In this document: positions 4,131 to 64,000 of the stretch, one piece after another
Position numbering within the stretch: position 1 is the first letter of the stretch
How the letters are laid out: every line of letters begins with the position of its first letter
Source: an uncultured Acidobacteriota bacterium
GTDB taxonomy: Bacteria > Acidobacteriota > Thermoanaerobaculia > Multivoradales > UBA5704
Reading direction: 5' to 3'
Assembly (NCBI GenBank): GCA_963770895.1
Contig: CAVYRF010000002.1
Location: 3,776,001-3,840,000 of the forward strand
Length of the DNA stretch: 64,000 bases
Notes under the pieces: generated by a model
Seen by the model: the letters and a program-made list of their open reading frames with translations, nothing else
Told to the model about the DNA's origin: nothing
Databases searched by the model: none
Made by a program: the position numbers and the translations under genes

Positions 4131-5119
4131 GGGTCGCCGCTCGCGGCACCACTCCGCGCGAGCCCCGCGCCGATCCTGCCGGCGTGCCGGGTGCGCCCGG
4201 CGATCTCTTCGTCTTGCGGCAGACGGCGCACTGCCCGTTGGAATGGGCGGTGGTGGGCAGCGACGGCGGCTCTCCCGCCCGGCTGCAGGTGGTTCCCGCC
4301 GACACCCATCCGGCGGCGGGCAGCGCCGACGTCAGGGTTCCGGCGCGCGCTGCCTCCGGCCCGCTCAGCCTGCGCTGCGGCTTCGCGCTTTGGGTGCCCG
4401 CGGCCTTTCTGAGCCAGGGCGTGCGGAGCGGCCGCCTGGACGATGCGGCACTCGCCCAGGCGCAACGCCGCATCGCGGACCTGCAGCAGGGGAACCCGAC
4501 CGGTACGCCGCTGGACCGCGAGGCGGAGGGCGACCCTGAATACCTGGATTGGATGAACGACAGCGTCGAACCGGCGGCGGCGGCGATGCGCGCCGCCAGA
4601 GCGGATTGGGAAGCCGCACGCGGCGCCGGGCGGAACCAGGTCGCCATGCCGCACCGCCTGCCGCTGCAAGCCAGCTCGTGGGCCGCCGCCGCCCTCCTCC
4701 TGGTTGCGCTTGGGCTGTCGTGGACGACCTTTTCGCTGCAGCGCAAGATCGACGGGCTGTCGCAGCCGCTCTTCGATCTGCCGAACGGCGAAATCACGTT
4801 CGGCTCTCCCACCCGCGGCCCCGACGCCGGTTCCCTGGTCCTGACGGTGCCGCCGCAGACCGGTCACGTCCTGCTCACCCTCGTGATCGGCCCCAAGGTG
4901 CCAACCGGCGGCGCCGGCCGCTTGGAGATCCAAACCCTCCAGGGCGCCGCAATCTGGCACAGCCCGCCGTTCCAGCTCAAGGCCAGCGCCGAGATCAACA
5001 TGGTGGTGTCGCGCGCTCTGCTGCCCGACACGTCCTATCGCCTCGCCCTGTTCGGCCAGGGCGGGGACCGCACCGATCCGCTGGAGATTTACAACCTGGA
5101 GTTTGCGCCCCCGCACTAG
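4127..5119 (+). CDS. Single-TM hypothetical protein (anti-sigma-like topology)
   Basis: Coupled ATG 4127; central TM WAAAALLLVALGLSW; beta-rich C-terminal domain. Confidence 0.6.
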   Translation: MRVAARGTTPREPRADPAGVPGAPGDLFVLRQTAHCPLEWAVVGSDGGSPARLQVVPADTHPAAGSADVRVPARAASGPLSLRCGFALWVPAAFLSQGVRSGRLDDAALAQAQRRIADLQQGNPTGTPLDREAEGDPEYLDWMNDSVEPAAAAMRAARADWEAARGAGRNQVAMPHRLPLQASSWAAAALLLVALGLSWTTFSLQRKIDGLSQPLFDLPNGEITFGSPTRGPDAGSLVLTVPPQTGHVLLTLVIGPKVPTGGAGRLEIQTLQGAAIWHSPPFQLKASAEINMVVSRALLPDTSYRLALFGQGGDRTDPLEIYNLEFAPPH

Positions 5120-5421
5120 TTCTAGCTGCCCGCGCGTCGCAGCCCTGCGCGGGGCCGCCGACGACCTCGATCTGTAACCGGGACGGGCGGAAAAGGAAGC
5201 GGTCCAGGCGGCGATCCCTGCAAATATCCCTACCCGCCCGGACCTGCTTCCGAAAGGCGCGCCATCCAAGCAACGCGACAACCAGCGCCACAACGGCTCA
5301 TCTCCGCAAGGCCGCCGCCGTTGCCGGTGGGGCGCCGCGCACCCGTCGAGTGGCCGCCGGGCGATCGGAGCGATACCCATCCGGCTTTTGCTGGCTCGGA
5401 ATTCCACATAGACTGCGGTGC

Positions 5422-5979
5422 ATGAACCATATCTTCCCCTGGGTCTCGGCTGGTTCGCCCGCGGCGATCGTGGTGGGCCTGGTGCTGCTGCTGTTGGGGC
5501 GGCGGCTGTTCTGGCTGTTCGTCGGTGTGGTCGGGTTCATGGCGGGCTGGTACTTCGTGATGGGGTCCTGGAACCACGCGCCGGGCGGGACGCAGCTGCT
5601 GCTGGCCCTGGGTGCCGGGGTGCTGGGAATCATCCTGGCGCTGGTGGCGCAAAAGATCGCCGTGGCGCTGGCAGGGTTCGCCGTGGGATGGTCGGCGGCG
5701 GCCTGGCTGCTCGGGTGGCAGGCGATGATGCTGCGCCCCGGCCAGCTGGCCGTGCTGGTGGCGGCCGGCGTGATCGCCGCGGTGCTGGCCGTGGTGGTGT
5801 TCGATTTCGCCCTGATCTTCTACTCGGCGCTTGCCGGGGCCAGCCTGATCGTGGAACATGTCCGAGCGCACCATCCCTTCAGCGGCGACGTGCGAATGGT
5901 GGCGCTGGTCGTGCTGGTGGTGATCGGCATCGCGGTCCAGATGCGCTTGCTGGAGCGAGGCCGCGCCCGCGAAGCCTGA
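5422..5979 (+). CDS. Multi-pass membrane protein (DUF4203/TM7S3-like)
   Basis: GLVLLLLGRRLFWLFVGVVGF motif; 6-7 hydrophobic helices; SALAGASLI. Confidence 0.75.
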   Translation: MNHIFPWVSAGSPAAIVVGLVLLLLGRRLFWLFVGVVGFMAGWYFVMGSWNHAPGGTQLLLALGAGVLGIILALVAQKIAVALAGFAVGWSAAAWLLGWQAMMLRPGQLAVLVAAGVIAAVLAVVVFDFALIFYSALAGASLIVEHVRAHHPFSGDVRMVALVVLVVIGIAVQMRLLERGRAREA

Positions 5980-6059
5980 TCTGCCCTCGCCGTCTCGCGC
6001 AATGGGGGGCAAGGTCTGTCGCGACAGCGCGTGCCGTCCGCGCAGTGCGCGTCGTTGCC

Positions 6060-6089
6060 TTGACAGTCTAGGCACAGTTGATCTATGCT
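6060..6089 (+). promoter_or_regulatory. sigma70-type promoter of the padR-permease operon
   Basis: TTGACA-18 bp-TATGCT. Confidence 0.6.
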
Positions 6090-6123
6090 TGCCGTACATA
6101 CCAAGGAGGCTCGACCGAACCAC

Positions 6124-6459
6124 ATGTCCCAGCAGCAGCCGCTTCCTCTTCTCCAGGGCACCCTGGATGCGCTCATCCTGAAGACCCTGAGCCGCGGGCC
6201 ACGCCACGGCTACGCGATCGCGCGCTGGCTCGAAGAGGCCACCGACGACGCGCTGCAAATCGAAGAAGGCTCGCTGTACCCGGCCCTCTATCGCATGGAG
6301 CGCCGGGGCTGGATCGAAGCCGAATGGGGCATCTCCGAGCTCAACCGCAAGGCCAAGTTCTATCGCCTCACGGCAGCCGGCCGTTCCCAGCTGGAAACCG
6401 AAACCGAACAGTGGCAAAGCTTCACCGCCGCGGTGTCCAAGGTGTTGCTGCCGGCCTGA
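6124..6459 (+). CDS. PadR-family transcriptional regulator (acidobacterial type)
   Basis: LLQGTLDALILKTL..HGYAI..EEGSLYPALYR..NRKAKFYRLT. Confidence 0.93.
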   Translation: MSQQQPLPLLQGTLDALILKTLSRGPRHGYAIARWLEEATDDALQIEEGSLYPALYRMERRGWIEAEWGISELNRKAKFYRLTAAGRSQLETETEQWQSFTAAVSKVLLPA

Positions 6460-6472
6460 CTCGTTCGACCTG

Positions 6473-9202
6473 ATGATTCCGACCGCGGGGCGCCATGGCC
6501 GCCGGCTCCGGTCGCTGCTCTGGCGTCCGGGAGTCGAAGATGAGATCGCCGACGAGCTGGCGTTCCATCTTGAGATGCGGGCGCGCGACTATGCCGCGGC
6601 GGGGCATGCACCGGCCGCGGCGGCGGTGCTCGCGCGGCGCCGCTTTGGCGACCTGGAGGGGGTGCGGGCGCTCTGCCGCGCCATCGCCAGCGGCCGCGAG
6701 CGGGCGCGGCGGCGTGACCGCTGGCTGGCCGAAGCGGCGCTGGACCTGCGGCTCGCCGCCCGGCGCCTGAGCGGCTCGCCGGTGCCGACCCTGGCCGCCG
6801 TGCTGGCGCTGGCGGTGGGGCTGGCCGGCGCCGCCGTCGCCTGGCAGGTGGCGGCAGCGGTGTTTCGCCCGCTGCCCTTTGCGGCGCCGGCCGCCCTGGT
6901 GCGGGTGCGCGAGGTGAGCGGCCAGGGGGCCGACTTCGCGGTCTCCGCTGCCGACTTCGCCGTCTGGCAGCGGCGCCATCCGGGGATGCTGGGGGTTGGC
7001 GCCTATGAGGCTGGGATCGCCAACCTCGACGGCGACGCGCCGGCAGGCGTGGCGCCGCTGGCCGTGGCAACCGCCCACGCCAGCGCGTCGCTGCTGCCGC
7101 TGCTGGGCGTGCGGCCGCAGCTGGGGCGCGGCATCGCGGTGACCGAGGCGGCGCCGCACGGCAACCACCGGGTGGCGATCCTGTCGCACTCCCTGTGGGT
7201 CGGCCGCTTCGCCGCCGATCCCAACGTGGTCGGCAGGCTGGTCGGCGTGGACGGCGAGCCGGTCCGCGTGATCGGCGTCCTGCCGGCGGAGGTGCCGGCA
7301 CCGGCCGGCGCGCAGCTGTGGATGCCGCTGCTGCCGCGCCAGCTGCAGGGAGCGCGGGCGCGCCAGCGTTTCAGCCTGGAGCTGCTGGGCCGCCTGGCGC
7401 CCGGCGTGACGGCTCGGCAGGCGGCCCAGGGCCTGGTGACTGCCGCGGCGGTCGCGGCGGTGGCCGGCGGGCCGGCGGCGGGCCGGGGAAGCGGCGTCGC
7501 GGTGCGCGTCGAACCGCTTGCCGGCGCCTGGACCGGATCGCGATGGACGCGCCGGGTGCGGCTGCTGCTGGCTGCCGCCGGGCTGCTGTGGCTGCTGGGC
7601 AGCGCCGGCGCCGCCAACCTGCTGTGGGCGCGGGCGTCGGTGCGCCAACGCGAGATCGACCTGTGCGCCGCGCTCGGCGGCGGGCGCCGCCGCATGGTGC
7701 GGCAGCTGCTTGCCGAAGGCCTGCTGGTGGCGCTGCTCGGCGCCGGCGCCGGCCTGCTGCTGGCGGGCGCAGCCGTACCGGCATTGCGCGCCGCCGGCGG
7801 CGGCTTGGCGGCGGCCGGCGACGCCGGGGGAGACATCGCGCCGCTGCCGCTGCCACAGGGGCTGGGCGCGAGCGGCGTTGCGGCCGTCCTGGCGCTGGCG
7901 CTCCTGAGCGGGCTGATGTGCAGCCTGGGGCCGCTGTCGCAGGCTGTGCGGCCTGGCATTCCGGAGACGGTGCGGCAGAGCGCGCGGCTCACCACGCGCC
8001 GCGAACGGCGGGTGCGGGATGCGGTGGTGGTGATCGAGATGGCGTTGGCGACCACGCTGCTGGCGGCCGCCGGCTTGCTGTGCTTGAGCTACCTGCGGCT
8101 GGACCGCGCCGATCCGGGTTTTGACGTCGACCACCTGCTGACGCTGCGCCTGGCGCTCAACGGCGCCGGCTATCCGCCGCCGCGCCGGCGGCAGCAGCTG
8201 CTGCGGCTCGAAGCGCGCGTGCAGGCCCTGCCCCAGGTGGCGGCAGCCGGCTTCATCAGCACCGCGCCGCTCGCCGCCCAACGCCCCAACGAGCCCTTCA
8301 CCCTCGAGCCGGGCGCCGCCGGGCCGGGTGGCGGTGCCGCGGTGCTGGCGGCGGAGTGGCGCGTGGTGACGGCGGGGCTGCTGCCGGCGCTCGGCCTGCA
8401 CCTGCAGACTGGCCGATGGCTGGGAGCGGCCGACGACGACCGCAAGCCGATGGCGGCGGTTGTGGATGCGACGGTCGCCGAACGGTGGTGGCCCGGCCTG
8501 CAGCCGCTGGGCCAGCGGTTGCGGTGGGGTGCGGCGCGCCGCGACCTGCAGGTCGTCGGGGTGGTCGGCGGGGTGCGCGACCTGGACCTGGAAGCCGCGC
8601 CGCGGCCGGTGGTCTTCCTGCCCTATGGCGCCGTCCCCTGGCGCTCCATGTCGCTGGTGGTGCGGCCGCGGTCCGGCACGTCGGCGGCCGGGCTCGCGTC
8701 GCTGGACGCCGCGGTACGGCGTGAGGTCGCGGCGCTCGACCCGGCGCTGCCGGCATCTGGCGACCAGCTGCTGGAGGCTGCCCGCCGCCAGGCGGTCAGC
8801 GGTCCGCGCCTGGGGCTCTGGCTTGTGGCGTTGTACGCCGGGGCCGCGCTGGCCCTGGCAGCCGGCGGCCTGTACGCGGCGGCGGCGGCGGCGGTGGTGC
8901 GGCGCACTGCCGAGCTGGCGGTGCGGCAGGCGTTGGGCGCCGCGCGCGGCGACGTGCTGCGGCTGGTTCTGGGGCACGGCCTGCGGCTGGCCGGCGCCGG
9001 CCTGGCGCTTGGCATCGCCGGTGCGCTGCTGTTCAATCGCCTGCTGGGCGGCCTGCTGTTCGAGCCGCTGGCGGCTGGCGCCCACCTGGCGATCTACGCC
9101 GGCACGGCGGCGCTCCTGGCCGCTGTGGCAAGCCTGGCCGCCCTGCTGCCCGCGCGCCGCGCCGCAGCCGTCGCGCCGGTTCTCGCCCTGCGCCGCGAGT
9201 AG
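6473..9202 (+). CDS. ADOP-type duplicated ABC permease (MacB/FtsX-like)
   Basis: N-terminal ELAFHLEM..ARRRFG prefix; RQREI..AALG; DPGF; ELAVRQALGA; C-terminal PARRAA..P..ALRRE. Confidence 0.88.
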   Translation: MIPTAGRHGRRLRSLLWRPGVEDEIADELAFHLEMRARDYAAAGHAPAAAAVLARRRFGDLEGVRALCRAIASGRERARRRDRWLAEAALDLRLAARRLSGSPVPTLAAVLALAVGLAGAAVAWQVAAAVFRPLPFAAPAALVRVREVSGQGADFAVSAADFAVWQRRHPGMLGVGAYEAGIANLDGDAPAGVAPLAVATAHASASLLPLLGVRPQLGRGIAVTEAAPHGNHRVAILSHSLWVGRFAADPNVVGRLVGVDGEPVRVIGVLPAEVPAPAGAQLWMPLLPRQLQGARARQRFSLELLGRLAPGVTARQAAQGLVTAAAVAAVAGGPAAGRGSGVAVRVEPLAGAWTGSRWTRRVRLLLAAAGLLWLLGSAGAANLLWARASVRQREIDLCAALGGGRRRMVRQLLAEGLLVALLGAGAGLLLAGAAVPALRAAGGGLAAAGDAGGDIAPLPLPQGLGASGVAAVLALALLSGLMCSLGPLSQAVRPGIPETVRQSARLTTRRERRVRDAVVVIEMALATTLLAAAGLLCLSYLRLDRADPGFDVDHLLTLRLALNGAGYPPPRRRQQLLRLEARVQALPQVAAAGFISTAPLAAQRPNEPFTLEPGAAGPGGGAAVLAAEWRVVTAGLLPALGLHLQTGRWLGAADDDRKPMAAVVDATVAERWWPGLQPLGQRLRWGAARRDLQVVGVVGGVRDLDLEAAPRPVVFLPYGAVPWRSMSLVVRPRSGTSAAGLASLDAAVRREVAALDPALPASGDQLLEAARRQAVSGPRLGLWLVALYAGAALALAAGGLYAAAAAAVVRRTAELAVRQALGAARGDVLRLVLGHGLRLAGAGLALGIAGALLFNRLLGGLLFEPLAAGAHLAIYAGTAALLAAVASLAALLPARRAAAVAPVLALRRE

Positions 9203-50147: not shown

Positions 50148-50223
50148 GGGCCGTTAGCTCAGTTGGTAGAGCAGCGGACTTTTAATCCGCGGGTCCAGAG
50201 TTCGAGTCTCTGACGGCCCACCA
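50148..50223 (+). tRNA. tRNA-Lys (TTT)
   Basis: GGGCCGT/ACGGCCC acceptor stem, D loop AGTTGGTA, anticodon arm GCGGA-CTTTTAA-TCCGC, TTCGA, encoded CCA; 76 nt. Confidence 0.96.
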
Positions 50224-51348
50224 ATGGAATCAGATACTTACGAGCCGCCAATTGCGGCTCGCTTGCTTTTAGTAGTCGCCGTGGTCCAGAACTGGTCCCA
50301 TGGCCAGCGTACAGCGACGGGTCGGTAGTGATGGGGCAGTTACTTGGCGGGTGCGTGTCCGCGTTGCAGGGCATCCGATCCAGACCCAATCCTTTCGGCG
50401 CAAGACCGATGCTGGCGAGTGGGCCGTGCGGACAGAAGCAGCCCTGCGGGACGGCAAGCACCTAATGGGCCGCGAGGCGAAGCGCAGGACCGTGAGCAAC
50501 CTCATCGCTCGATACCGGCTCGATGTGATCCCGGCTTACGGCGCGCGCGAGCAAGGTCAACGCCTCGGTAAGCTGGCCTGGTGGGAGAGCCAGGTCGGCA
50601 ACCTGCTCGTTAGCGATTTGACCGCGGCGAGGGTTATCGAATGCCGGGCTAGGCTTGCCCGCGGCGAAGGTCCAAGCGGAAAGCCTGCGTCGCCGGCGAC
50701 GCAGGCTCGGTACCTTGCTGCCCTGAAGCACGTCTTCTCGATAGCGCGCGACGAGTGGGAGTGGACCACCGACAACCCGATGGCTCGGGTGCGAGCTCCG
50801 AAGGAGCCGCGCGGGCGGGTTCGGTTCCTTTCTGAGGACGAACGTACCTGCCTCCTGGCGGCGTGCAGGTCGAGCGATAATCGGCGGCTCTACCCTCTCG
50901 TTCTCTTAGCGCTGAGCACCGGAGCAAGACAAGGCGAGCTCTTGGCGCTGCGCTGGCCGGACATCGACTTCGCGCTCTGCCAGGCGACGGTCCAGGAGTC
51001 AAAAAACGACGAACGCCGCGCCCTGGCCTTGAGCGATGGTGCCCTAGCTAGTAGTACTTCGCGAGCTGCGCCAGGTACGCCCGATCCACAGCGACTTGGT
51101 TTTTGCCACCAGGTCGGGCGATGCCACGGTGCCAAGGAAGGCGTGGGAGGCGGCGCTCCGCAAGGCTAAGGTTGAGGACTTTCACTTCCACGACCTTAGG
51201 CATTATCCCGAGCGCCGGATTATCCCGAGTTGGCCGCCAATCCAGCGCACCAGCGCGCACACTTGGGACTTGCAGCCTATGATGTACGCGGGATAATCCT
51301 GGTCCAATCTCCTCCCATCCGGCAGAGTGCCGGGCAAGGAGGAGATAC

Positions 51349-52590
51349 ATGCTGGAAGATTTCTTCGACGTACCTGCCGCCGCACAGCCACTTCGGTCCT
51401 GCGTTTTCGGCGGTCACCTCGACGGGTTCTGCGCGAGGCTCCTTGGCCTCGGCTACCAGCGCGTCACGATCCGGCAAAAGCTGTTGGTCGTGCGCGATCT
51501 GGCACGCTGGGTGAGTGCGAACCACTTGGCCGTGGGCGATCTTGACGAGGGGCGGATTCACCAGTTCCTCGACACGCGGCGCCGCCGTGGCCGCACTTAT
51601 CGCGGCTTCCGGTCCACAGCGCTGCTCCTGCTCGAGCAGCTCCGCAGCGCCGGCGCTGTTCCGATGCCAAAATTGGTCCTCGACGAGTCGCCTGTCGCCG
51701 CTCTCCTGACGCGCTATGAGGGGTACTTGGGACGGGAGCGGGCGCTCGAAGAGTGCACGATTGCGGGCTACCAGCGGTTCGTGCGCTTGTTCGTCATCGA
51801 ACGCCTCGGTGGTGGTACTCGGCCCGATTCTCTGCGCCCTGGCGATGTCCGCGAGTTCCTCCTCAGTCGAGTTGGCTGCATGAAGCCTCAGGTGGCGCAG
51901 TTCATGGGTACTGCACTGCGTTCGTTCTTGCGCTTCCTGTTCCTGAACGGTGAGACCGGCACCGACCTCGCTCCTGCGGTCCCGACCGTGCGTCGATGGC
52001 GAATGTCGAGCGTGCCCCGGCATCTCCCTGCGCGAGACGTGGAGCGGCTGCTGCGTGCGTGTGACTCGTCGTCCGCCACGGGACGTCGAGACCACGCGAT
52101 TCTCTTGCTTCTTGCCCGACTCGGCCTTCGCGCCAGCGAGGTTGTGGCGCTCGAACTCGGCGATCTGCACTGGCGCGAGGGTGAGATCGTCGTTCGCGGA
52201 AAAGGCCTCGTCCACGACCGCCTACCACTTCTCCCCGATGTCGGAGAGGCGCTCGCTCTCTACCTGAAGAAGGACCGACAGCCTGGCAGTTCTCGTCGCG
52301 TCTTTCTCTGCAGGCGGGCGCCACACCGCGGGCTCGCTCATCCCTCCACCGTCTCGACGATCGTCGCACGTGCGCTCGTCCGGGCGGGACTCCAGCCCGC
52401 GACCCGCGGTGCCCACCTGCTTCGCCACAGCTTGGCCACCACCATGGTGCGGCGGGGTGCCTCTCTTTCCGAGATCGGGCAGGTGCTCCGCCACCGCTCG
52501 CCCAGCTCGACGGAGATCTACGCCAAACTCGACTTCGGCGCCCTGCGCGACGTGGCGATGCCCTGGCCAACGGCCAGAGGTGCGCGATGA
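51349..52590 (+). CDS. RIT tyrosine recombinase A
   Basis: GLRASE, HLLRH, LRH..STEIYAK. Confidence 0.9.
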   Translation: MLEDFFDVPAAAQPLRSCVFGGHLDGFCARLLGLGYQRVTIRQKLLVVRDLARWVSANHLAVGDLDEGRIHQFLDTRRRRGRTYRGFRSTALLLLEQLRSAGAVPMPKLVLDESPVAALLTRYEGYLGRERALEECTIAGYQRFVRLFVIERLGGGTRPDSLRPGDVREFLLSRVGCMKPQVAQFMGTALRSFLRFLFLNGETGTDLAPAVPTVRRWRMSSVPRHLPARDVERLLRACDSSSATGRRDHAILLLLARLGLRASEVVALELGDLHWREGEIVVRGKGLVHDRLPLLPDVGEALALYLKKDRQPGSSRRVFLCRRAPHRGLAHPSTVSTIVARALVRAGLQPATRGAHLLRHSLATTMVRRGASLSEIGQVLRHRSPSSTEIYAKLDFGALRDVAMPWPTARGAR

Positions 52591-53531
52591 GCACCCTCGG
52601 TCAGGCCCTCGAAACCTACCTCGCCCTACGGCGCGGGCTCGGCTCGGAGCTGCGGGAGCCGGGCGCTTACCTGCATCGTTTTGTCGAGTTCCTCGACCGC
52701 GAAGGGACAGCCGTTGTCACGACGCAGCTTGCGCTGCGCTGGGCGACGGCACCGACCCACGCCACACCCGCCACCTGGGCACAGCGGTTGGCCGATGTGC
52801 GCCGCTTCGCCGCCTGGCTCAGCGCCACGGACCCTCGTACTGAGATCCCGCCACCTGGCCTGTTGCCTGACCGTTACCGGCGGCGACCGCCCTACATCTA
52901 CAGCGATAAGGAGGTCGCGCGCATCGTTGGCGAGGCCGCGCGACTTGTCTCGCCCTGCGGACTGCGAGCACTCACATACGGCGCGCTCTTCGGCCTTCTC
53001 GCCGCCACCGGTCTGCGTCTCGGTGAGGCACTCGCCCTCGATCGTGACGATGTCGACCTCAGTGCCGGCATCCTGGCGGTACGGCGTGCGAAGTTTGGCA
53101 AGTCCCGTTTCGTTCCTGTCCATGACTCGACACGAAAGGCCTTACGTCGCTACGCGCAGCAGCGGGATCGTCTCCTTCGGCGGCCGGTGTCGCCGGCCTT
53201 CCTTCTGTCCGATCGCGGCAGCCGCATTAGCCAGTGCAGTGCCCGGTATAACTTCGCCATCGTTTCCCGGGCCGCTGGCCTCCGCCCGCCCACGCGCGGA
53301 GGTCGCCATGGTCGCGGTCCGCGGCTTCACGACATGCGGCACCGGCTCGCAGCGAAAGTGCTCGTCCGCTGGTACCGCGAGGGACGCGACGTGGAGCGTG
53401 AGCTCCCCAAGCTGTCCGCCTACCTCGGCCACGTCCATGTCGCCGACACCTACTGGTACATCGAGGCGGTCCCAGAGCTCCTGCGGCTGGCCACTGAGCG
53501 GGCGACCCGCCCGCGGAAGGAAGCGCCGTGA
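52587..53531 (+). CDS. RIT tyrosine recombinase B
   Basis: TGLRLGEA, KFGKSR, HDMRH, YLGH..TYWY. Confidence 0.9.
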   Translation: MSTLGQALETYLALRRGLGSELREPGAYLHRFVEFLDREGTAVVTTQLALRWATAPTHATPATWAQRLADVRRFAAWLSATDPRTEIPPPGLLPDRYRRRPPYIYSDKEVARIVGEAARLVSPCGLRALTYGALFGLLAATGLRLGEALALDRDDVDLSAGILAVRRAKFGKSRFVPVHDSTRKALRRYAQQRDRLLRRPVSPAFLLSDRGSRISQCSARYNFAIVSRAAGLRPPTRGGRHGRGPRLHDMRHRLAAKVLVRWYREGRDVERELPKLSAYLGHVHVADTYWYIEAVPELLRLATERATRPRKEAP

Positions 53532-54522
53532 GCACTTCCGATTTCCCAGCGATGCTCCAGGCTTTCTTCACCGAACGCTTGCTCACCCAGCGGCGGGCCA
53601 GCCCGCACACCGTGGCCTCCTACCGCAATACCTTTCGCTTGCTCCTACGCTTCGCCGCTGAGCAGCTCGGCCGCGCCCCCTCCGGCATCTCGCTTACAGA
53701 TCTCGACGCCGCGTTTCTCGGCAAGTTCCTCGACCACCTCGAGCGCGAGCGCGCAACTCCGCTCGCAGCCGCAACGTCCGCCTCGCGGCGCTCCATGCCT
53801 TCTTCCGATATGTCGCCTTCACCGATCCAGCCCACGCGCTGCTTTGCCAGCGAAACCTCGCCATCCCGAGTAAACGCTTCGAGCGCGGGATCGTGGAGTT
53901 CCTCGGCGAAAGCGAGGTCGAAGCTCTCCTCGATGCCCCAGATCTTGCCACCTGGATCGGACGGCGCGACCATGCGCTCCTTCTCGTCGGCGTCCAGACC
54001 GGCCTGCGCGTTTCCGAGTTGACCGCCCTCTGTCATCAAGACGTGACGTTTGGCGCCGGCGCCCACGTCCGCTGCCAAGGCAAGGGGCGAAAGCTCCGCT
54101 GCACGCCCCTGCGCCGCGACGTCATGCGAGTCTTGAAGGCATGGCTGCGTGAGCAGCCGCTGGAACCTGACAGGCCGGTCTTTCCCAGCTCGCGCGGCGG
54201 CCGGATGAGCGAGGACGCCGTCGAGCGACTGGTGGCGAAGCACGTCACCGCCGCGCAACAATGTTGCCCGTCCCTCGTTGGCAAGAAGGTCACACCGCAT
54301 ACGCTTCGCCACACGGCCGCGATGCGGTTGCTCCAAAGCGGAGTGGACCGCAGCGTCATCGCCCTCTGGCTTGGCCACGAGTCCATCGAAACCACCCAGA
54401 TGTACCTGCACGCGGATCTTGGCCTGAAAGAAAAGGCCCTGGCGCGCACGGACTCCTCACAGCGGGCTCCGGGGCGCTACCGTCCGAAAGACACTCTCTT
54501 GACTTTCCTGGAGGGCCTCTGA
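53528..54522 (+). pseudogene. RIT tyrosine recombinase C, 1-bp deletion at ~53753
   Basis: ASPHTVASYR N-part; frame changes at GAGCGC-GC-AAC; C-part GLRVSE, HTLRH, LGHE, MYLH. Confidence 0.85.
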
Positions 54523-55150
54523 TTATCCCGCGTCCGATGGCTGCCCAAGGCAGAGCCACGCCGCTGCACACCTCCAACTCGGGATAATCCGGCGCTCGGG
54601 ATAATGCCGGTTATCCCGCGCGCGGGATAAGCGGCACACCTTCGCCTCCTACCTCGCTATGTCGGGCGCGACACTCCCGGAGCTGGCGGCGGCGCTCGGC
54701 CACAAGACCTTGGCCATGGTCCAGCGGTACGCCCACCTGGCCCCGGCTCACACGGCTGGGGTGGTGCGGCGGATGACGGAGAAGTTCCTTTCGGACGGCC
54801 CGGTTGCGACATGAGCGGACTCTTACAAACACAGGGACTTGCGTCATTGCAGTCCCAGAATGGCGGGCGCGATCGCGGTGCCCATCGACGAGCGGCTAGC
54901 CCAGGGGTCGCGGCGCGGCTGGGGCGGAGCATCCCCCCGGCCTCTGGTCCGGGGGGGCGGACCTCTGCTGCGCCCCCGTCGTGGTGCGCTGAATCACGTA
55001 GGAGAGCGACGGTACAGATGCACGATTGACGGGAAGGCAGGCTCTGAGCTGGTGAAAGAATTGCGTTTTTCCGCACAGCTTGTGGTGTTCCGCCAGGGTC
55101 GCTGAGCCGTGTCCTGGCTAAGGCGCGATCGGGTATCGAGTGAGCTTGGG

Positions 55151-60658: not shown

Positions 60659-61210
60659 ATGCGAAAGAGCGGCCGACACCGACGGACGTTGCCGCCAAAG
60701 AAGGGCGCGGCCCCGTTGCTTGCCTTAGCCCTGGCGATGCTGTCCTGCGGCGGCGCGGTCCACGCCCAAGACGTGGACGAACCGAAGGCGATCATCGAGC
60801 TCGGGGCGGCCGGCGAATGGACCGCTCCAGATGGCCGATCGAGCTACGGCCCCTCACTCGCCGTCGAGACCACCCCGATCGAGCATTGGCTGGAGATCGA
60901 AGGTGGCATTTCGCCCTTGTTCAGCCGAGGCCAGACCGAGTGGGACGTCGACCTACTCTTCAAGAAGCCCTTCACGATCTCCGATACCGCAGAATTCATG
61001 GCCGGTATCGGCCCCACCTGGAGCCACATCGTCCTGCACGGCCGAAGAGATCACGCCTGGGGCGCCGAAGCGGCGTTGGACTTTATGTTCTGGCCCTGGA
61101 AAGGGCGCAGGCTCGGCTGGTATGTCGAGCCCAGCTGGGGGTATAGCTTCAACGCCGGTCATGAGCGGGCGCTCAGCGCCAGCGCCGGAGTCCTCGTCCC
61201 CATCCCCTGA
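60659..61210 (+). CDS. Secreted outer-membrane beta-barrel-like hypothetical protein
   Basis: Signal peptide ending AVHA-Q; alternating aromatic/Gly amphipathic strands. Confidence 0.6.
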   Translation: MRKSGRHRRTLPPKKGAAPLLALALAMLSCGGAVHAQDVDEPKAIIELGAAGEWTAPDGRSSYGPSLAVETTPIEHWLEIEGGISPLFSRGQTEWDVDLLFKKPFTISDTAEFMAGIGPTWSHIVLHGRRDHAWGAEAALDFMFWPWKGRRLGWYVEPSWGYSFNAGHERALSASAGVLVPIP

Positions 61211-61477: not shown

Positions 61478-62989
61478 TCACGTGGCGATGGATAGGGCGG
61501 GCTGAGCCCGGTGCTGCAGGAGGTCGAGGGCGCGACGGGCCTGGTCAAGAGTCGCGGCGTCGCGCTTGGCAGCATCGCAGAAGAGGCGGAGGGCTGCGAG
61601 CGCCTCGCGGTCCACGCGGCGCGAGGTCAAGATCCAGACCATGCTTGCAGCCAAGTGGCGCACCTCGGCGGTGCGGCCCTGGTCGAGATAGATCAGCGCG
61701 AGCTCCAAGGAGACGATGGCGGCACCGAACGCCTGGCCTTCGTCTTCAGACTGCTTCTTGACCTCCTCGAAGGCGGCACACGCTTCCGCCTGGCGGCCGC
61801 GGCCTGCCGCCACGCGGCCGGTCAGCCAGACGACCTGCATTTGGTCGTGGGCGTTGCCAAGCTCAAGCGCCTGCTGGCGGAGGCGCGGAAGCTGCGCCTC
61901 CACCTCGGCGTAGTGGCCCAGATGGCACCGGCTGACACCGAGATTGAACTCCAGCACCCAGGTCAGGCGAGGGTCATCGTCGGCCGCGATGTGCGGAGCG
62001 GCGTCGTGGAGAGCCGCGATGGCGGCGGTTGCATCGCCTGATAGTTCCAGGGTGTAGGCACGATTAAGGAGGATTCGGGCCGTGGCGCCTGGCGGCGCGA
62101 TCGCGGCGGCGCGATCGAGCAGGTCGAACGCCGGCTGGAACTGGCGGGTGTCGCGGCGAAGCGAGGCTTCGAGATCGAGCAGACGCCATTCCTCAAGGCC
62201 GATGTCACCTACGTCGGCACCCGACCGCCACAGGTTCCAGGCGGCCGTGAACTCTGCCGCAGCCGCGACCAAGTCGCCGGCCACACGCCGGGCATTGCCG
62301 AGGAACGCGCGCGCGTAGCCTTGGAGCCGCAAGCGCCAGCGTTCGCCGCCAGGGACAAGCTGGGCTACCTCAACGGCGAGCTGGGCCAGGTCGAGGGCTG
62401 CGACGGCCCCCTTCGGCGCCTCGCGCGCGCTTTCCTCGCATAGCCTTTCCGCGAAGGCCCAGGTCTGGAGCTCAGGACCCTGCTCGACCAGCCACCGCCG
62501 TTCTGCGGCGGTGCAGGTTGCGATTCGGTCCCAGGCGCGGGCCGCGTCCTCACGATCGGCAGGTGACGGCGGCCCAGGCTCCAGCGTCGCGGCCTCGGCG
62601 GCATCCGCAGCCGCATCGACCCCGGCCAAGACCAAGTCCATCGCCTCACGGATGGCGGTCTCAAGAGCGGCATGGTCCAGCGGTGCGAGATCCTGGGTCG
62701 CCCTGGGTCCGCGATCGTCCCGCGGTCGACCCGCCGCGGTCGACGCCGCCCGTTCACGTGCGGTGCGCAGGACGGGGAGTAAGCGGTGTTCGACCCAGGA
62801 GAGCTCCAGGCCCACGGCGGCGACGATCCGCGCCAGGACGTCCGGAGAGATCGGGTCGCCCGATTCGAAGCGGGAGATCGAGGGCTGGGCGAGCCGGGCT
62901 GCGTCGGCGAGGGTGCGCTGATCCCAGCCGCGGAGGGCGCGCAGCAGAGGGAGGAGTATCCGGGCATCCGCATCTTTATAGGGGGGCAT
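61478..62989 (-). CDS. XRE-family HTH + TPR-like helical repeat regulator
   Basis: GGAGGAG RBS; LRALRGWDQRTLADAARLAQPSISRFESG HTH; TPR-like AFLGNARRVAGDL, ILLNRA, FNLGV. Confidence 0.85.
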   Translation of the reverse strand: MPPYKDADARILLPLLRALRGWDQRTLADAARLAQPSISRFESGDPISPDVLARIVAAVGLELSWVEHRLLPVLRTARERAASTAAGRPRDDRGPRATQDLAPLDHAALETAIREAMDLVLAGVDAAADAAEAATLEPGPPSPADREDAARAWDRIATCTAAERRWLVEQGPELQTWAFAERLCEESAREAPKGAVAALDLAQLAVEVAQLVPGGERWRLRLQGYARAFLGNARRVAGDLVAAAAEFTAAWNLWRSGADVGDIGLEEWRLLDLEASLRRDTRQFQPAFDLLDRAAAIAPPGATARILLNRAYTLELSGDATAAIAALHDAAPHIAADDDPRLTWVLEFNLGVSRCHLGHYAEVEAQLPRLRQQALELGNAHDQMQVVWLTGRVAAGRGRQAEACAAFEEVKKQSEDEGQAFGAAIVSLELALIYLDQGRTAEVRHLAASMVWILTSRRVDREALAALRLFCDAAKRDAATLDQARRALDLLQHRAQPALSIAT

Positions 62990-63136
62990 GGCGTCAACTC
63001 CTCCGAGGCATGTATGCCATATACGGAAAAAGTGTATTTTTAACCTCTGTTGTCGTCCCGGCGGATGGTCCATGGAGGCGGCCGGGTTCGGGCCAATGTC
63101 GACCGCGAACGGCGGCGCCTCATGAAAGGACTTCTC

Positions 63137-63592
63137 ATGCGTCACCCGATCTCCCGTCGCATCGTCGCCGCTGCCATCCTTGCCCTGGCCGCCTGGGCCA
63201 GCGCACCTCGGTCGCTTAGGGCCGTCCCGGCGTCCGGCTTTGGCATCGTGGCAAGCCAGGATGCCGACTTGTTCGCGCCGGTGCGTCGCTGGATGAGCGC
63301 GATCTGGCCCTGGCACAGCTCCGGCGCTAGCCGAAGCACGGTCCGGAACCCTACCGTTGCGAGGCCGCAGAACGGATGTGGAATCGACCCGAATGGTGGC
63401 CAGCAGTGCACCAACGTCGTCAAGCCGCAGAACGGCTGTGGAATCGATCCGAGCGGCCAGCAGTGCAACAATGTTCTCAAACCGCAGAACGGTTGTGGGG
63501 CGGATCCGAACGGCCAGCCGTGCAGCAATGTCGTCAAGCCGCAGAACGGCTGCGGAATTGACCCTGATGGGCAGCACTGCTCGCATAGCTGA
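63137..63592 (+). CDS. Secreted propeptide with four Cys-containing tandem repeats
   Basis: AAGGA RBS; signal peptide; (R/K)PQNGCG(I/A)DP(N/S/D)G..C four times, with third-position codon variation between copies. Confidence 0.85.
   Translation: MRHPISRRIVAAAILALAAWASAPRSLRAVPASGFGIVASQDADLFAPVRRWMSAIWPWHSSGASRSTVRNPTVARPQNGCGIDPNGGQQCTNVVKPQNGCGIDPSGQQCNNVLKPQNGCGADPNGQPCSNVVKPQNGCGIDPDGQHCSHS
63364..63580 (+). repeat. Coding tandem repeat, 57-60 bp unit, four copies
   Basis: CCGCAGAACGG recurs at intervals of 60, 57 and 57 bp. Confidence 0.9.
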
Positions 63593-63735
63593 GTGCTGAT
63601 GCCCGAGCCGTCGGATCGGTGCTAAGTGGCGTCTTGCCCCTGTGGCCTGATTGGTGGCGAAGACGTGCCGCAGGTGTCGGCTAGTGTCGTGCCGGCCGGA
63701 GCCCGGTCGAGGGCGCCGCCTTTGCCGGCGTGCGC

Positions 63736-64000
63736 TCACGGCGTGATGAAGCCGAGATGGTGCGAGCGACTGAGCAGGCGCAGGGCCGCGCGCGCCTGTT
63801 CTATTGTGGCCATTTGGCGGACGGCCGCCGCGCAAAAGAGCCGCAGACTGGCGAGGGCTTCGCGCTCGATCCGCTGGGCGACAAGGACCGGGCGCATTTC
63901 CAGCGCCAAGCGGCGCACCTCGGCGAGCCGGCCGTCCTCCAGGTAGATAATCGCTAGTTCGAGAGAGACGAGGGCGCTGGCAAGGTGGTTGCCGCGGGCC
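63736..64000 (-). CDS. C-terminus of a second, paralogous TPR-like regulator (5' part outside window)
   Basis: VSLELAIIYLEDGRLAEVRRLA..REALASLRLFC..ATIEQAR matches the C-terminus of 61478-62989. Confidence 0.8.
   Translation of the reverse strand, partial: ARGNHLASALVSLELAIIYLEDGRLAEVRRLALEMRPVLVAQRIEREALASLRLFCAAAVRQMATIEQARAALRLLSRSHHLGFITP

Follow-up and report, generated by a model that had tools for sequence, protein, structure and literature searches.

Organization of the Locus

At the end of a 64,000-nucleotide stretch of DNA from an uncultured soil bacterium of the Acidobacteriota (Thermoanaerobaculia; GenBank assembly GCA_963770895.1, contig CAVYRF010000002.1), a short gene for a putatively exported peptide precursor lies wedged between the genes for two paralogous regulators, both of which are read from the opposite strand. 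The whole stretch, called the window here, corresponds to G000:C2:3776001-3840000 of a genome of 8.16 Mb with 71% GC in three contigs, and the three genes together are referred to as the cassette. Regulator 1 (61478..62989, minus strand) is a 503-aa product of an open reading frame (ORF) with an XRE-type helix-turn-helix (HTH) domain at residues ~1-85, a low-confidence linker at ~86-140, and a superhelix of tetratricopeptide repeats (TPR) at ~143-499. It is divergent from the peptide gene (63137..63592, plus strand), an ORF of 151 aa plus stop. The divergent intergenic region contains an AT-rich box, GAAAAAGTGTATTTTTAACC (63026..63045), marked as a candidate promoter or operator element by motif counts, and on the plus strand a GC-rich candidate hairpin within the 5′ leader that precedes the peptide ORF (63075..63121), which is the positional counterpart of a covarying leader hairpin found in the family. 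Between this hairpin and the start codon sits a ribosome-binding site, GAAAGGA (63124..63130, plus strand), kept at an equal distance from the ATG in the cassettes labeled A, B, C, and E and family-wide. On the far side, convergent with the peptide gene, the C-terminal 87 aa of regulator 2 occupy 63736..64000 on the minus strand, and its gene extends past the window to ~G000:C2:3841190 or further. The two regulators are 49% identical (E=5e-108, match at G000:C2:3839766-3841187). An original prediction made from the letters of the window had described a 503-aa XRE-HTH and TPR protein divergent from a 151-aa signal-peptide ORF and followed by the C-terminus of a paralogous second regulator, and all of these are indeed present. 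The cassette is real and strongly conserved, far beyond chance.

The Peptide Precursor and Its Repeat Units

The N-terminus of the window precursor combines positive charge, a hydrophobic core, and an A-x-A-like site. A rule applied to the sequence (RR in the n-region, hydrophobic core, A-x-A) assigns residues 1-29 (63137..63223, plus strand) as a predicted Sec-type signal peptide, with probable cleavage after SLRA or AWA. A second in-frame start candidate, the ATG at 63122, overlaps the GAAAGGA ribosome-binding site, which the paralogues place 7 nt before the start codon. Because the upstream ATG overlaps this conserved site, the 151-aa form is the likely product. The AlphaFold2 (AF2) model of the precursor, a low-confidence one with a predicted local distance difference test (pLDDT) value of 49.8, contains helices only at residues 8-21, the signal core, and 47-56, a Trp segment, and is otherwise unstructured. 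The second of these (63275..63304, plus strand) is a putative Trp-rich amphipathic helix of the pro-region that is conserved across the family. Precursors of the family carry a W-x-x-[LI]-W-type motif directly before the first unit, and W52 is nearly invariant.

The window precursor ends in four units of 15-16 residues each that follow the pattern [KR]PQNGCG.DP.G..C. All are repeats on the plus strand: RPQNGCGIDPNGGQQC (63362..63409), KPQNGCGIDPSGQQC (63422..63466), KPQNGCGADPNGQPC (63479..63523), and KPQNGCGIDPDGQHC (63536..63580). They agree letter for letter with those first listed for this locus. The accompanying claim of synonymous variation between units also stands, since pairwise comparison over a 12-codon core gives 3-7 synonymous vs 1-2 nonsynonymous differences, a pattern that marks the unit core as being under purifying selection at the codon level. 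Statistics collected over 54 precursors and 135 units yield the consensus [KDE]-[NAE]-G-C-x-[ILVA]-D-P-[NDS]-G-x-C, with 1-6 units per precursor in the family and four here. Allowing for variable spacing and optional Cys, the unit core can be written G-[C]-x-[ILVA]-D-P-x-G-x(1-3)-[C]. The usual Cys ring spans 9 residues across the family, and the rings of the window precursor span 10-11. Gly is found at position -4 in 128/135 units and Cys at -3 in 104/135. Since that Gly is so nearly constant and both Cys are found in 100/135 units, Cys appears dispensable and DPxG together with the preceding Gly invariant. As judged from the aligned units, the invariant element is thus G-x-x-x-D-P-x-G, and the disulfide is frequent yet dispensable. 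Release of disulfide-cyclized peptides had been put forward, and this part of the original prediction is not fully supported, in that cyclization is no defining trait of the family: 30/135 units contain zero Cys, 9/54 precursors are Cys-free, and in 7/54 the C-terminus falls exactly at DPxG. Mapping the Cys-free state onto the regulator tree takes 6 changes, so Cys was lost repeatedly. Units also resemble their neighbors in the same precursor, in that likeness at 6 variable positions is 0.44 within a precursor vs 0.20 between precursors, a value that 0/1000 shuffles reach.

Databases contribute little to the identity of the precursor. Its five database relatives are all annotated as hypothetical and have no Pfam domain, and the window precursor itself has no Pfam match above cut-off. 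When 50 of the 70 family precursors were compared with Pfam, 46 had no match and 4 had matches below the cut-off (DUF6799 twice, Thaumatin, and DUF6771). The two DUF6799 matches, at L056:4841-5215 (minus strand, 23.1 bits) and L071:4993-5424 (minus strand, 16.2 bits) against a cut-off of 26.8, represent a possible distant link or a compositional artifact. Matches for the peptide in the ESM Atlas, at scores of 0.85-0.88, fall in unnamed Acidobacteriota clusters alone and serve as leads only. Two simpler identities were considered and rejected. A chance ORF is excluded by conservation, synonymous bias, and synteny. The precursor of a ribosomally synthesized and post-translationally modified peptide (RiPP) was set aside given a Sec-type signal on the precursor and a cassette with no modifying enzyme. 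In every cassette read, the genes flanking the precursor are two regulators; the sole enzyme near the window copy is a GNAT ~3 kb away that is not conserved at other cassettes, and the NCBIfam model RiPP_TM1316 gives E=0.42, which is below its cut-off.

Two loci depart from the usual layout of the peptide gene. At L019, two tandem, near-identical, Cys-free peptide genes ending in DPYGG (4939-5208 and 5536-5805, minus strand) lie between two regulators, with a copy of the promoter and leader in front of each. At L020:5457-5675 (plus strand), an ORF of ~56 aa with a signal-like N-terminus ends in LIDPGGG; it follows closely downstream of a regulator whose other flank already holds a peptide gene.

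A Cassette Family in Thermoanaerobaculia

The window cassette is one of many. A six-frame motif scan and a rule-based peptide scan (signal-like N-terminus, a DP.G unit, and either a Trp motif or Cys flanks) together returned 21 candidate peptide ORFs in the host genome. Fourteen of the 21 lie at most 200 bp from, or overlap, an ORF of the regulator family, and all 14 look genuine; the remaining 7 are at least 66 kb from regulators and appear unrelated by eye. The host genome therefore holds at least 14 such cassettes. A phmmer search with regulator 1 recovered 44 stop-to-stop ORFs from the same genome at E<1e-5, most of which stand next to one another in twos or threes. Regulator homologues are present in 28/31 relatives' genomes, including 18/18 of the same family, and both the number and the sequence of the cassettes are highly variable between genomes. 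A phylum-wide sample of 301 genomes, with five candidates scored per genome, gave 4 that match at E<=1e-20, the host itself included, and all belong to the same order. A pattern scan for related loci, built on an 8-sequence alignment and restricted to one genome per GTDB species, led to 62 loci, all in metagenome-assembled genomes (MAGs) of Acidobacteriota, Thermoanaerobaculia, or Thermoanaerobaculaceae, 2 of them labeled Holophagales. The module is lineage-specific to Thermoanaerobaculia.

Peptide and regulator genes travel together in these genomes. The peptide rule finds an ORF at 52/62 related loci vs 6/300 random 8.4-kb windows of the host genome. Among regulator-pair loci from ten relatives, a peptide ORF was seen by a first regular expression at 10/13 and by a refined scan at 13/13. 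A failure of DPxG peptides to co-occur with HTH-TPR genes had been named at the outset as grounds for abandoning the proposal, and with these counts and the 14 host-genome peptides beside regulators, the co-occurrence test did not refute it. The gene order is equally regular. For 110 distinct regulators, the peptide gene is found on the opposite strand just downstream of the regulator in 63 cases and just upstream in 29; 17 have no peptide within 900 bp, and a single one has a peptide on its own strand.

One further gene accompanies some cassettes. A ~470-aa helical protein without a Pfam match recurs near several of them (L013:7811-9211, plus strand; L016:5009-5722 and 5293-7029, plus strand; G000:C2:498698-500116, minus strand), and cassettes C and D have an ORF with a C-P-E-C motif ahead of it.

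The Paired Regulators

Pfam recognizes HTH_3 in regulator 1 (E=1.5e-7, residues 16-65), with weak TPR matches. A profile of 39 family members compared with the sequences of the Protein Data Bank (PDB) finds consensus TPR proteins at 3.3e-9 and HTH domains of the HipB/434 type at ~1e-6. The AF2 model of regulator 1 has a pLDDT of 88.4 and a predicted template modeling score (pTM) of 0.72, and places a TPR superhelix of ~360 residues at 143-499. Top Foldseek matches of this model are LGN TPR domains (E=2.9e-5), and RapJ-PhrC (4gyo) is found at rank 15 with a TMt of 0.66. A VIA-align fold search over 48,161 chains gave LGN with Z 21.6 (root-mean-square deviation (rmsd) 4.7, 288 residues aligned), Pins with Z 21.1, and APPBP2 with Z 20.9, followed at rank 4 by NprR-NprX (4gpk) with Z 19.6 (rmsd 4.9, 291 aligned). 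Further matches are RapI (Z 19.0), Rap-phi105 with its peptide (Z 18.0), MalT domain III (Z 16.7), and PlcR-PapR (Z 16.1), for which the alignment starts at the HTH. The predicted fold is thus a TPR superhelix of the peptide-binding type, equally near RRNPP receptors and unrelated TPR proteins. The best match is LGN/Pins, which according to the entry titles binds extended peptides in its concave groove and which, unlike the regulator, is a eukaryotic scaffold with no HTH and unrelated biology. The LGN match points only to a generic peptide-binding TPR superhelix.

In a FastTree phylogeny of 110 regulators, the two genes that flank one peptide are often sisters (14 loci), which therefore argues for recurrent tandem duplication or gene conversion. 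In the clade to which the window cassette belongs, upstream-type regulators make up one group and downstream-type regulators its sister. Several regulator genes have an unusual makeup. In cassettes A, B, and C, the downstream regulator is contained in a long ORF (L013:3737-6022; L014, G000:C2:5556812-5559316; and L015, G000:C2:1902174-4030; all on the minus strand) that has an extra copy of the HTH at its N-terminus, joined in A and B by a portion of the TPR region. Either an internal tandem duplication or the fused remnant of a gene could account for the extra copy. Another regulator subtype, the third and a divergent one, shows an apparent HTH-TPR-HTH order and occurs within a few kb of cassettes B, C, D, and H (L016:7026-9167, plus strand, with counterparts at G000:C2:1822242, 1905118, and 5559264), and its second HTH resembles the N-terminus of regulator 1.

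The Divergent Control Region

With up to 4 mismatches allowed, the AT-rich box has only 4 genomic occurrences, which lie in the interval that separates regulator 1 from its peptide gene in cassettes A, B, C, and E. Its core, GTG[GT]ATTTTT (<=2 mismatches), lies at ~-99 from the ATG in 21/70 upstream regions of peptide genes vs 34/3000 background windows. A GGCAC-containing motif upstream of some peptide genes was examined by eye as a sigma-54 promoter and rejected on the ground that its -12 GC is off the consensus distance.

In most peptide genes, a GC-rich imperfect hairpin of ~45 nt follows 3′ of the box and ends 5-10 nt before the ribosome-binding site. A covariance model, R1, was built from 16 leaders with the hairpin taken from single-sequence folds. 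It has 59 matches at E<=0.01 in 654 kb (for example, L053:4997-5062 and L069:4960-5025, both minus strand), and every match ends on an ATG, the same as that of the predicted peptide gene wherever the scan called one. Within the R1 alignment, which was fitted to the model and hence leans toward the structure, 80.7% of cells pair vs 36-54% with slid partners, 14/18 pairs are altered on both sides, and the covariation score is 0.231 vs 0.150 for shuffled alignments (0/500) and <=0.096 for slid ones. RNAalifold returned no structure on a MAFFT alignment of 57 leaders. The window leader itself folds similarly to the family hairpin at -30.7 kcal/mol, which is not better than shuffles (z = -1.35), and has no match to R1 at E<=0.01. 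Rfam gave nothing at the leader, and only sub-threshold miRNA-like matches elsewhere in L053. The family hairpin may act in mRNA stability or translational control.

Docking of the Precursor to Regulator 1

Complex prediction was performed with the TPR part of regulator 1, supplied with an alignment, and the 122-residue mature precursor. An ipSAE of 0.53 was obtained (runs 0.55, 0.37, and 0.53) vs 0.00 for the best of 3 controls, which the tool's verdict describes as weak support. Contacts common to the runs amount to at least 23%, the pLDDT of the partner is at least 32, and no interface was reported. For calibration, the pass mark is reached by 58/80 solved complexes and 2/110 mismatched pairs, and passes at or below 0.60 include only 7/80 solved complexes and both mismatches. 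Structure prediction of the receptor with its peptide had been suggested as a check on the proposed pairing; it puts the pair above all controls, and only within the weak-support band. Such a result nudges up the odds that the peptide may bind in the TPR domain and proves nothing.

Host and Genomic Setting

The host genome has five Omp85 matches, and because of these the host is taken to be a diderm Acidobacterium. The related loci, which all come from Acidobacteriota MAGs, agree with the diderm host originally supposed. Two binding proteins of the OppA/DppA type (SBP_bac_5) and one DsbA-like thioredoxin are encoded in the genome, and none of these genes, the Omp85 family included, lies beside a cassette. 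Part of the window is also contained in five soil-metagenome DNA runs from two studies, and no RNA run is listed for it.

The window copy was predicted to be carried on an island. A tRNA-Lys(TTT) gene at 50148-50223 is followed by four tyrosine-recombinase genes at 50300-54022, and the GC content falls from 50 kb onward. Nine congeners all match the window at 78-84% identity up to ~49377, the tRNA-Lys being common to all, and have paralogue-level matches only beyond that point. No synteny with the host genome was found downstream of the tRNA in two congeners, and the far end of the island was not located. The island claim thus holds for this copy to the extent that it sits in an island-like, strain-specific stretch, with its tRNA-Lys, integrases, and interrupted synteny, and fails for the family, which is chromosomal and lineage-wide. 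A perfect inverted repeat of 35 nt (51199-51233 / 54574-54608) encloses three of the four recombinase genes. Just upstream of the cassette, a 183-aa ORF at 60659-61210 (plus strand) begins with a signal-like segment and matches nothing in Pfam or NCBIfam.

Relationship to Known Peptide Signaling Systems

The signals of diderm bacteria are generally held to be small molecules. According to PMC10075063 and PMC9765709, genetically encoded peptides sensed in the cytoplasm by TPR receptors are a specialty of Bacillota, and PMC9765709 reports RRNPPA systems in Firmicutes. In that paper, the RRNPP(A) architecture is described as a cytoplasmic HTH-TPR receptor with an adjacent Sec-exported propeptide that carries its signal toward the C-terminus. 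The cassette shares much of this description with NprR-NprX, PlcR-PapR, and AimR-AimP: a predicted N-terminal HTH joined to a C-terminal TPR superhelix in a cytoplasmic protein, and a small adjacent gene for a propeptide, predicted to leave by Sec, whose candidate signal lies in its C-terminal part. It is also like the NprR, PlcR, and AimR systems in having many diverged paralogous cassettes per genome and in its modeled fold, which is similar to those of NprR-NprX (Z 19.6) and PlcR-PapR (Z 16.1). Unlike them, it has no membership in their profiles, and its host is a diderm Acidobacterium, not one of the Bacillota. Other differences lie in the layout and the ligand. The peptide gene is antisense to the receptors here rather than downstream on the same strand, the peptide genes have a structured 5′ leader, and the candidate ligands are units that conserve a DPxG core and in most cases can close through two Cys, instead of short linear peptides. 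The RRNPP architecture that the original prediction recognized is therefore present as far as an HTH-TPR protein and an adjacent, putatively exported propeptide are concerned, and does not extend to membership by sequence.

Other receptor-pheromone pairs offer partial parallels. In Rgg-SHP and PrgX-PrgQ, the receptor gene and the pheromone gene point away from each other, with one intergenic control region for both, as here. Pheromones of the SHP and PrgQ types are hydrophobic linear peptides exported by other routes, unlike the Sec signal and hydrophilic Cys-loop units of the cassette, and no sequence relationship to these systems was found. Rap proteins are not known to have an HTH and act on response regulators. 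Their pheromones are linear penta- or hexapeptides and their hosts are Bacillota, which sets them apart from the cassette; in common with it, they have TPR domains, which rank near the top of the fold searches, and the Rap-Phr systems of phages phi3T and phi105 have several candidate mature peptides per exported precursor. Tandem duplicates within multi-copy pheromone propeptides are described for these phages in PMC11343458.

The cassette had been called an undescribed system, and we found no description of it in the literature, with the proviso that the supplementary tables of RRNPP surveys, which were outside the search, might list members beyond Bacillota. Searches for RRNPP(A) in Acidobacteria or Acidobacteriota and for quorum sensing in Thermoanaerobaculia likewise found nothing relevant.

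Competing Explanations

The best reading of the cassette, at roughly even odds in our estimate, is a module of peptide signal and receptor that resembles RRNPP systems and works in a diderm bacterium. A number of observations weigh against that reading. No RRNPP chain is found among the best 60 of 146 PDB sequence matches of the family profile; Pfam at E<=1 gives only HTH_3, HTH_31, DUF5818, and generic TPR models for the regulator and no RRNPP(A) family; and NCBIfam gives nothing above cut-off and no RRNPP(A) family either. These profiles place the regulator outside every RRNPP(A) family. The fold match is unspecific, with LGN/Pins, APPBP2, and subunits of APC scoring as high as or higher than RRNPP receptors in VIA-align, and the docking pass lies within a band that the tool deems more often wrong than right unless the guess is already likely. 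Unlike RRNPP(A) systems, the cassette has two paralogous receptors per peptide and a conserved Trp-rich helix in the pro-region. That the DPxG core and the Trp helix are conserved family-wide is unusual for pheromones, which diverge fast. Finally, no transporter gene was seen in the cassettes read, and a peptide of 10-16 residues would have to pass the outer membrane on its way out and again on its way in.

Several of these same features would be expected if the peptide were a regulated secreted effector acting outside the cytoplasm (for example, a membrane-active or antimicrobial peptide, a multi-headed array of protease-inhibitor-like loops, an adhesin, or an ion binder) and the regulators sensed some other ligand. 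This is the main rival, and we consider it unlikely. Family-wide conservation of the Trp-rich amphipathic helix and of the closed 9-residue loops is what a structural or effector motif would show, the strong promoter box and covarying leader hairpin fit a highly expressed secreted product, the diderm host has no dedicated importer in the cassette, and the fold match to RRNPP receptors is unspecific. An effector fits poorly with the gene content, in which ~3 kb of regulator genes attend each 0.3-0.45-kb peptide gene at least 14 times per genome, a ratio typical of signal-receptor modules, and in which no conserved immunity, transport, or maturation gene was found in the cassettes read. The losses of Cys on the regulator tree, at least 6 in number, argue against a rigid loop scaffold such as an inhibitor. 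The precursor is predicted to be disordered. Homogenization of the units within a precursor, together with their differences between paralogues, and a docking score above all controls, the latter a weak point, also speak against an effector. A quite improbable alternative keeps the signal and confines it to the envelope: the peptide would never re-enter and would report on the state of the periplasm or of secretion, or an unexported precursor would be sensed in the cytoplasm, so that the module would be a cell-autonomous feedback loop and not a means of communication between cells. Sec export in a diderm reaches the periplasm only, as textbook knowledge has it and as the Omp85 matches make pertinent here; the cassette has no component for export or import across the outer membrane, and the conserved Trp helix could hold the precursor at the membrane. 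Multi-copy, homogenized units with paralogue-specific ring residues are ill-suited to a generic stress reporter, however, and a ligand confined to the periplasm is out of reach of cytoplasmic TPR receptors. Very improbable, in our view, is a module that serves a mobile element in the manner of arbitrium or Rap-Phr, or that serves kin discrimination, instead of host physiology. The window copy does follow a tRNA-Lys and four tyrosine-recombinase genes at a point where synteny with 9 congeners stops (~49377) and GC dips (from 50 kb), and the number and sequence of cassettes vary highly between genomes. Against this stand the at least 14 chromosomal sites in the host, the presence of cassettes in 18/18 sampled genomes of the host's taxonomic family, flanks with no phage or conjugation genes where other copies were read, and an island whose far end was not located.

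Proposed Mechanism and Implications

Returning to the cassette as a peptide signal-receptor module, its mode of action can be sketched by analogy with RRNPP signaling, from which we infer every step beyond the anatomy. The precursor would be exported by Sec, and its loops would be closed in the periplasm where Cys is present. It would then be cut to single units, which would exit the cell and later re-enter. A unit could be bound in the concave TPR face of one or both flanking regulators, and the bound regulators would change their action at the AT-rich box and promoter, resulting in autoregulation and possibly in control of further targets. Carrying the same peptide several times, each precursor would give a stronger signal, and the differing ring residues across the at least 14 cassettes of one genome may keep separate channels apart. 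The full picture of diderm peptide quorum sensing, with several copies of one small DPxG ring peptide per precursor (disulfide-closed in most cassettes, open in some), a receptor pair of recent duplication or gene conversion, at least 14 orthogonal channels per genome across soil Thermoanaerobaculia, and a conserved structured leader as a second layer of control, is more than we would currently lean toward, and we offer it as a tentative and somewhat doubtful model.

What the cassette means for its hosts depends on which explanation is correct. If the peptide is an effector, the cassettes would still define a large family of secreted loop peptides that has no name so far and is served by its own paired regulators. 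If it is instead a signal, the multi-copy DPxG loops would be a new pheromone chemistry, and the question would arise of how such peptides cross the outer membrane. With at least 14 diverged cassettes, a single genome would offer synthetic biology a natural set of possibly orthogonal receptor-ligand pairs. Peptide quorum sensing would then extend to the Acidobacteriota, which rank among the most abundant and least understood phyla of the soil.

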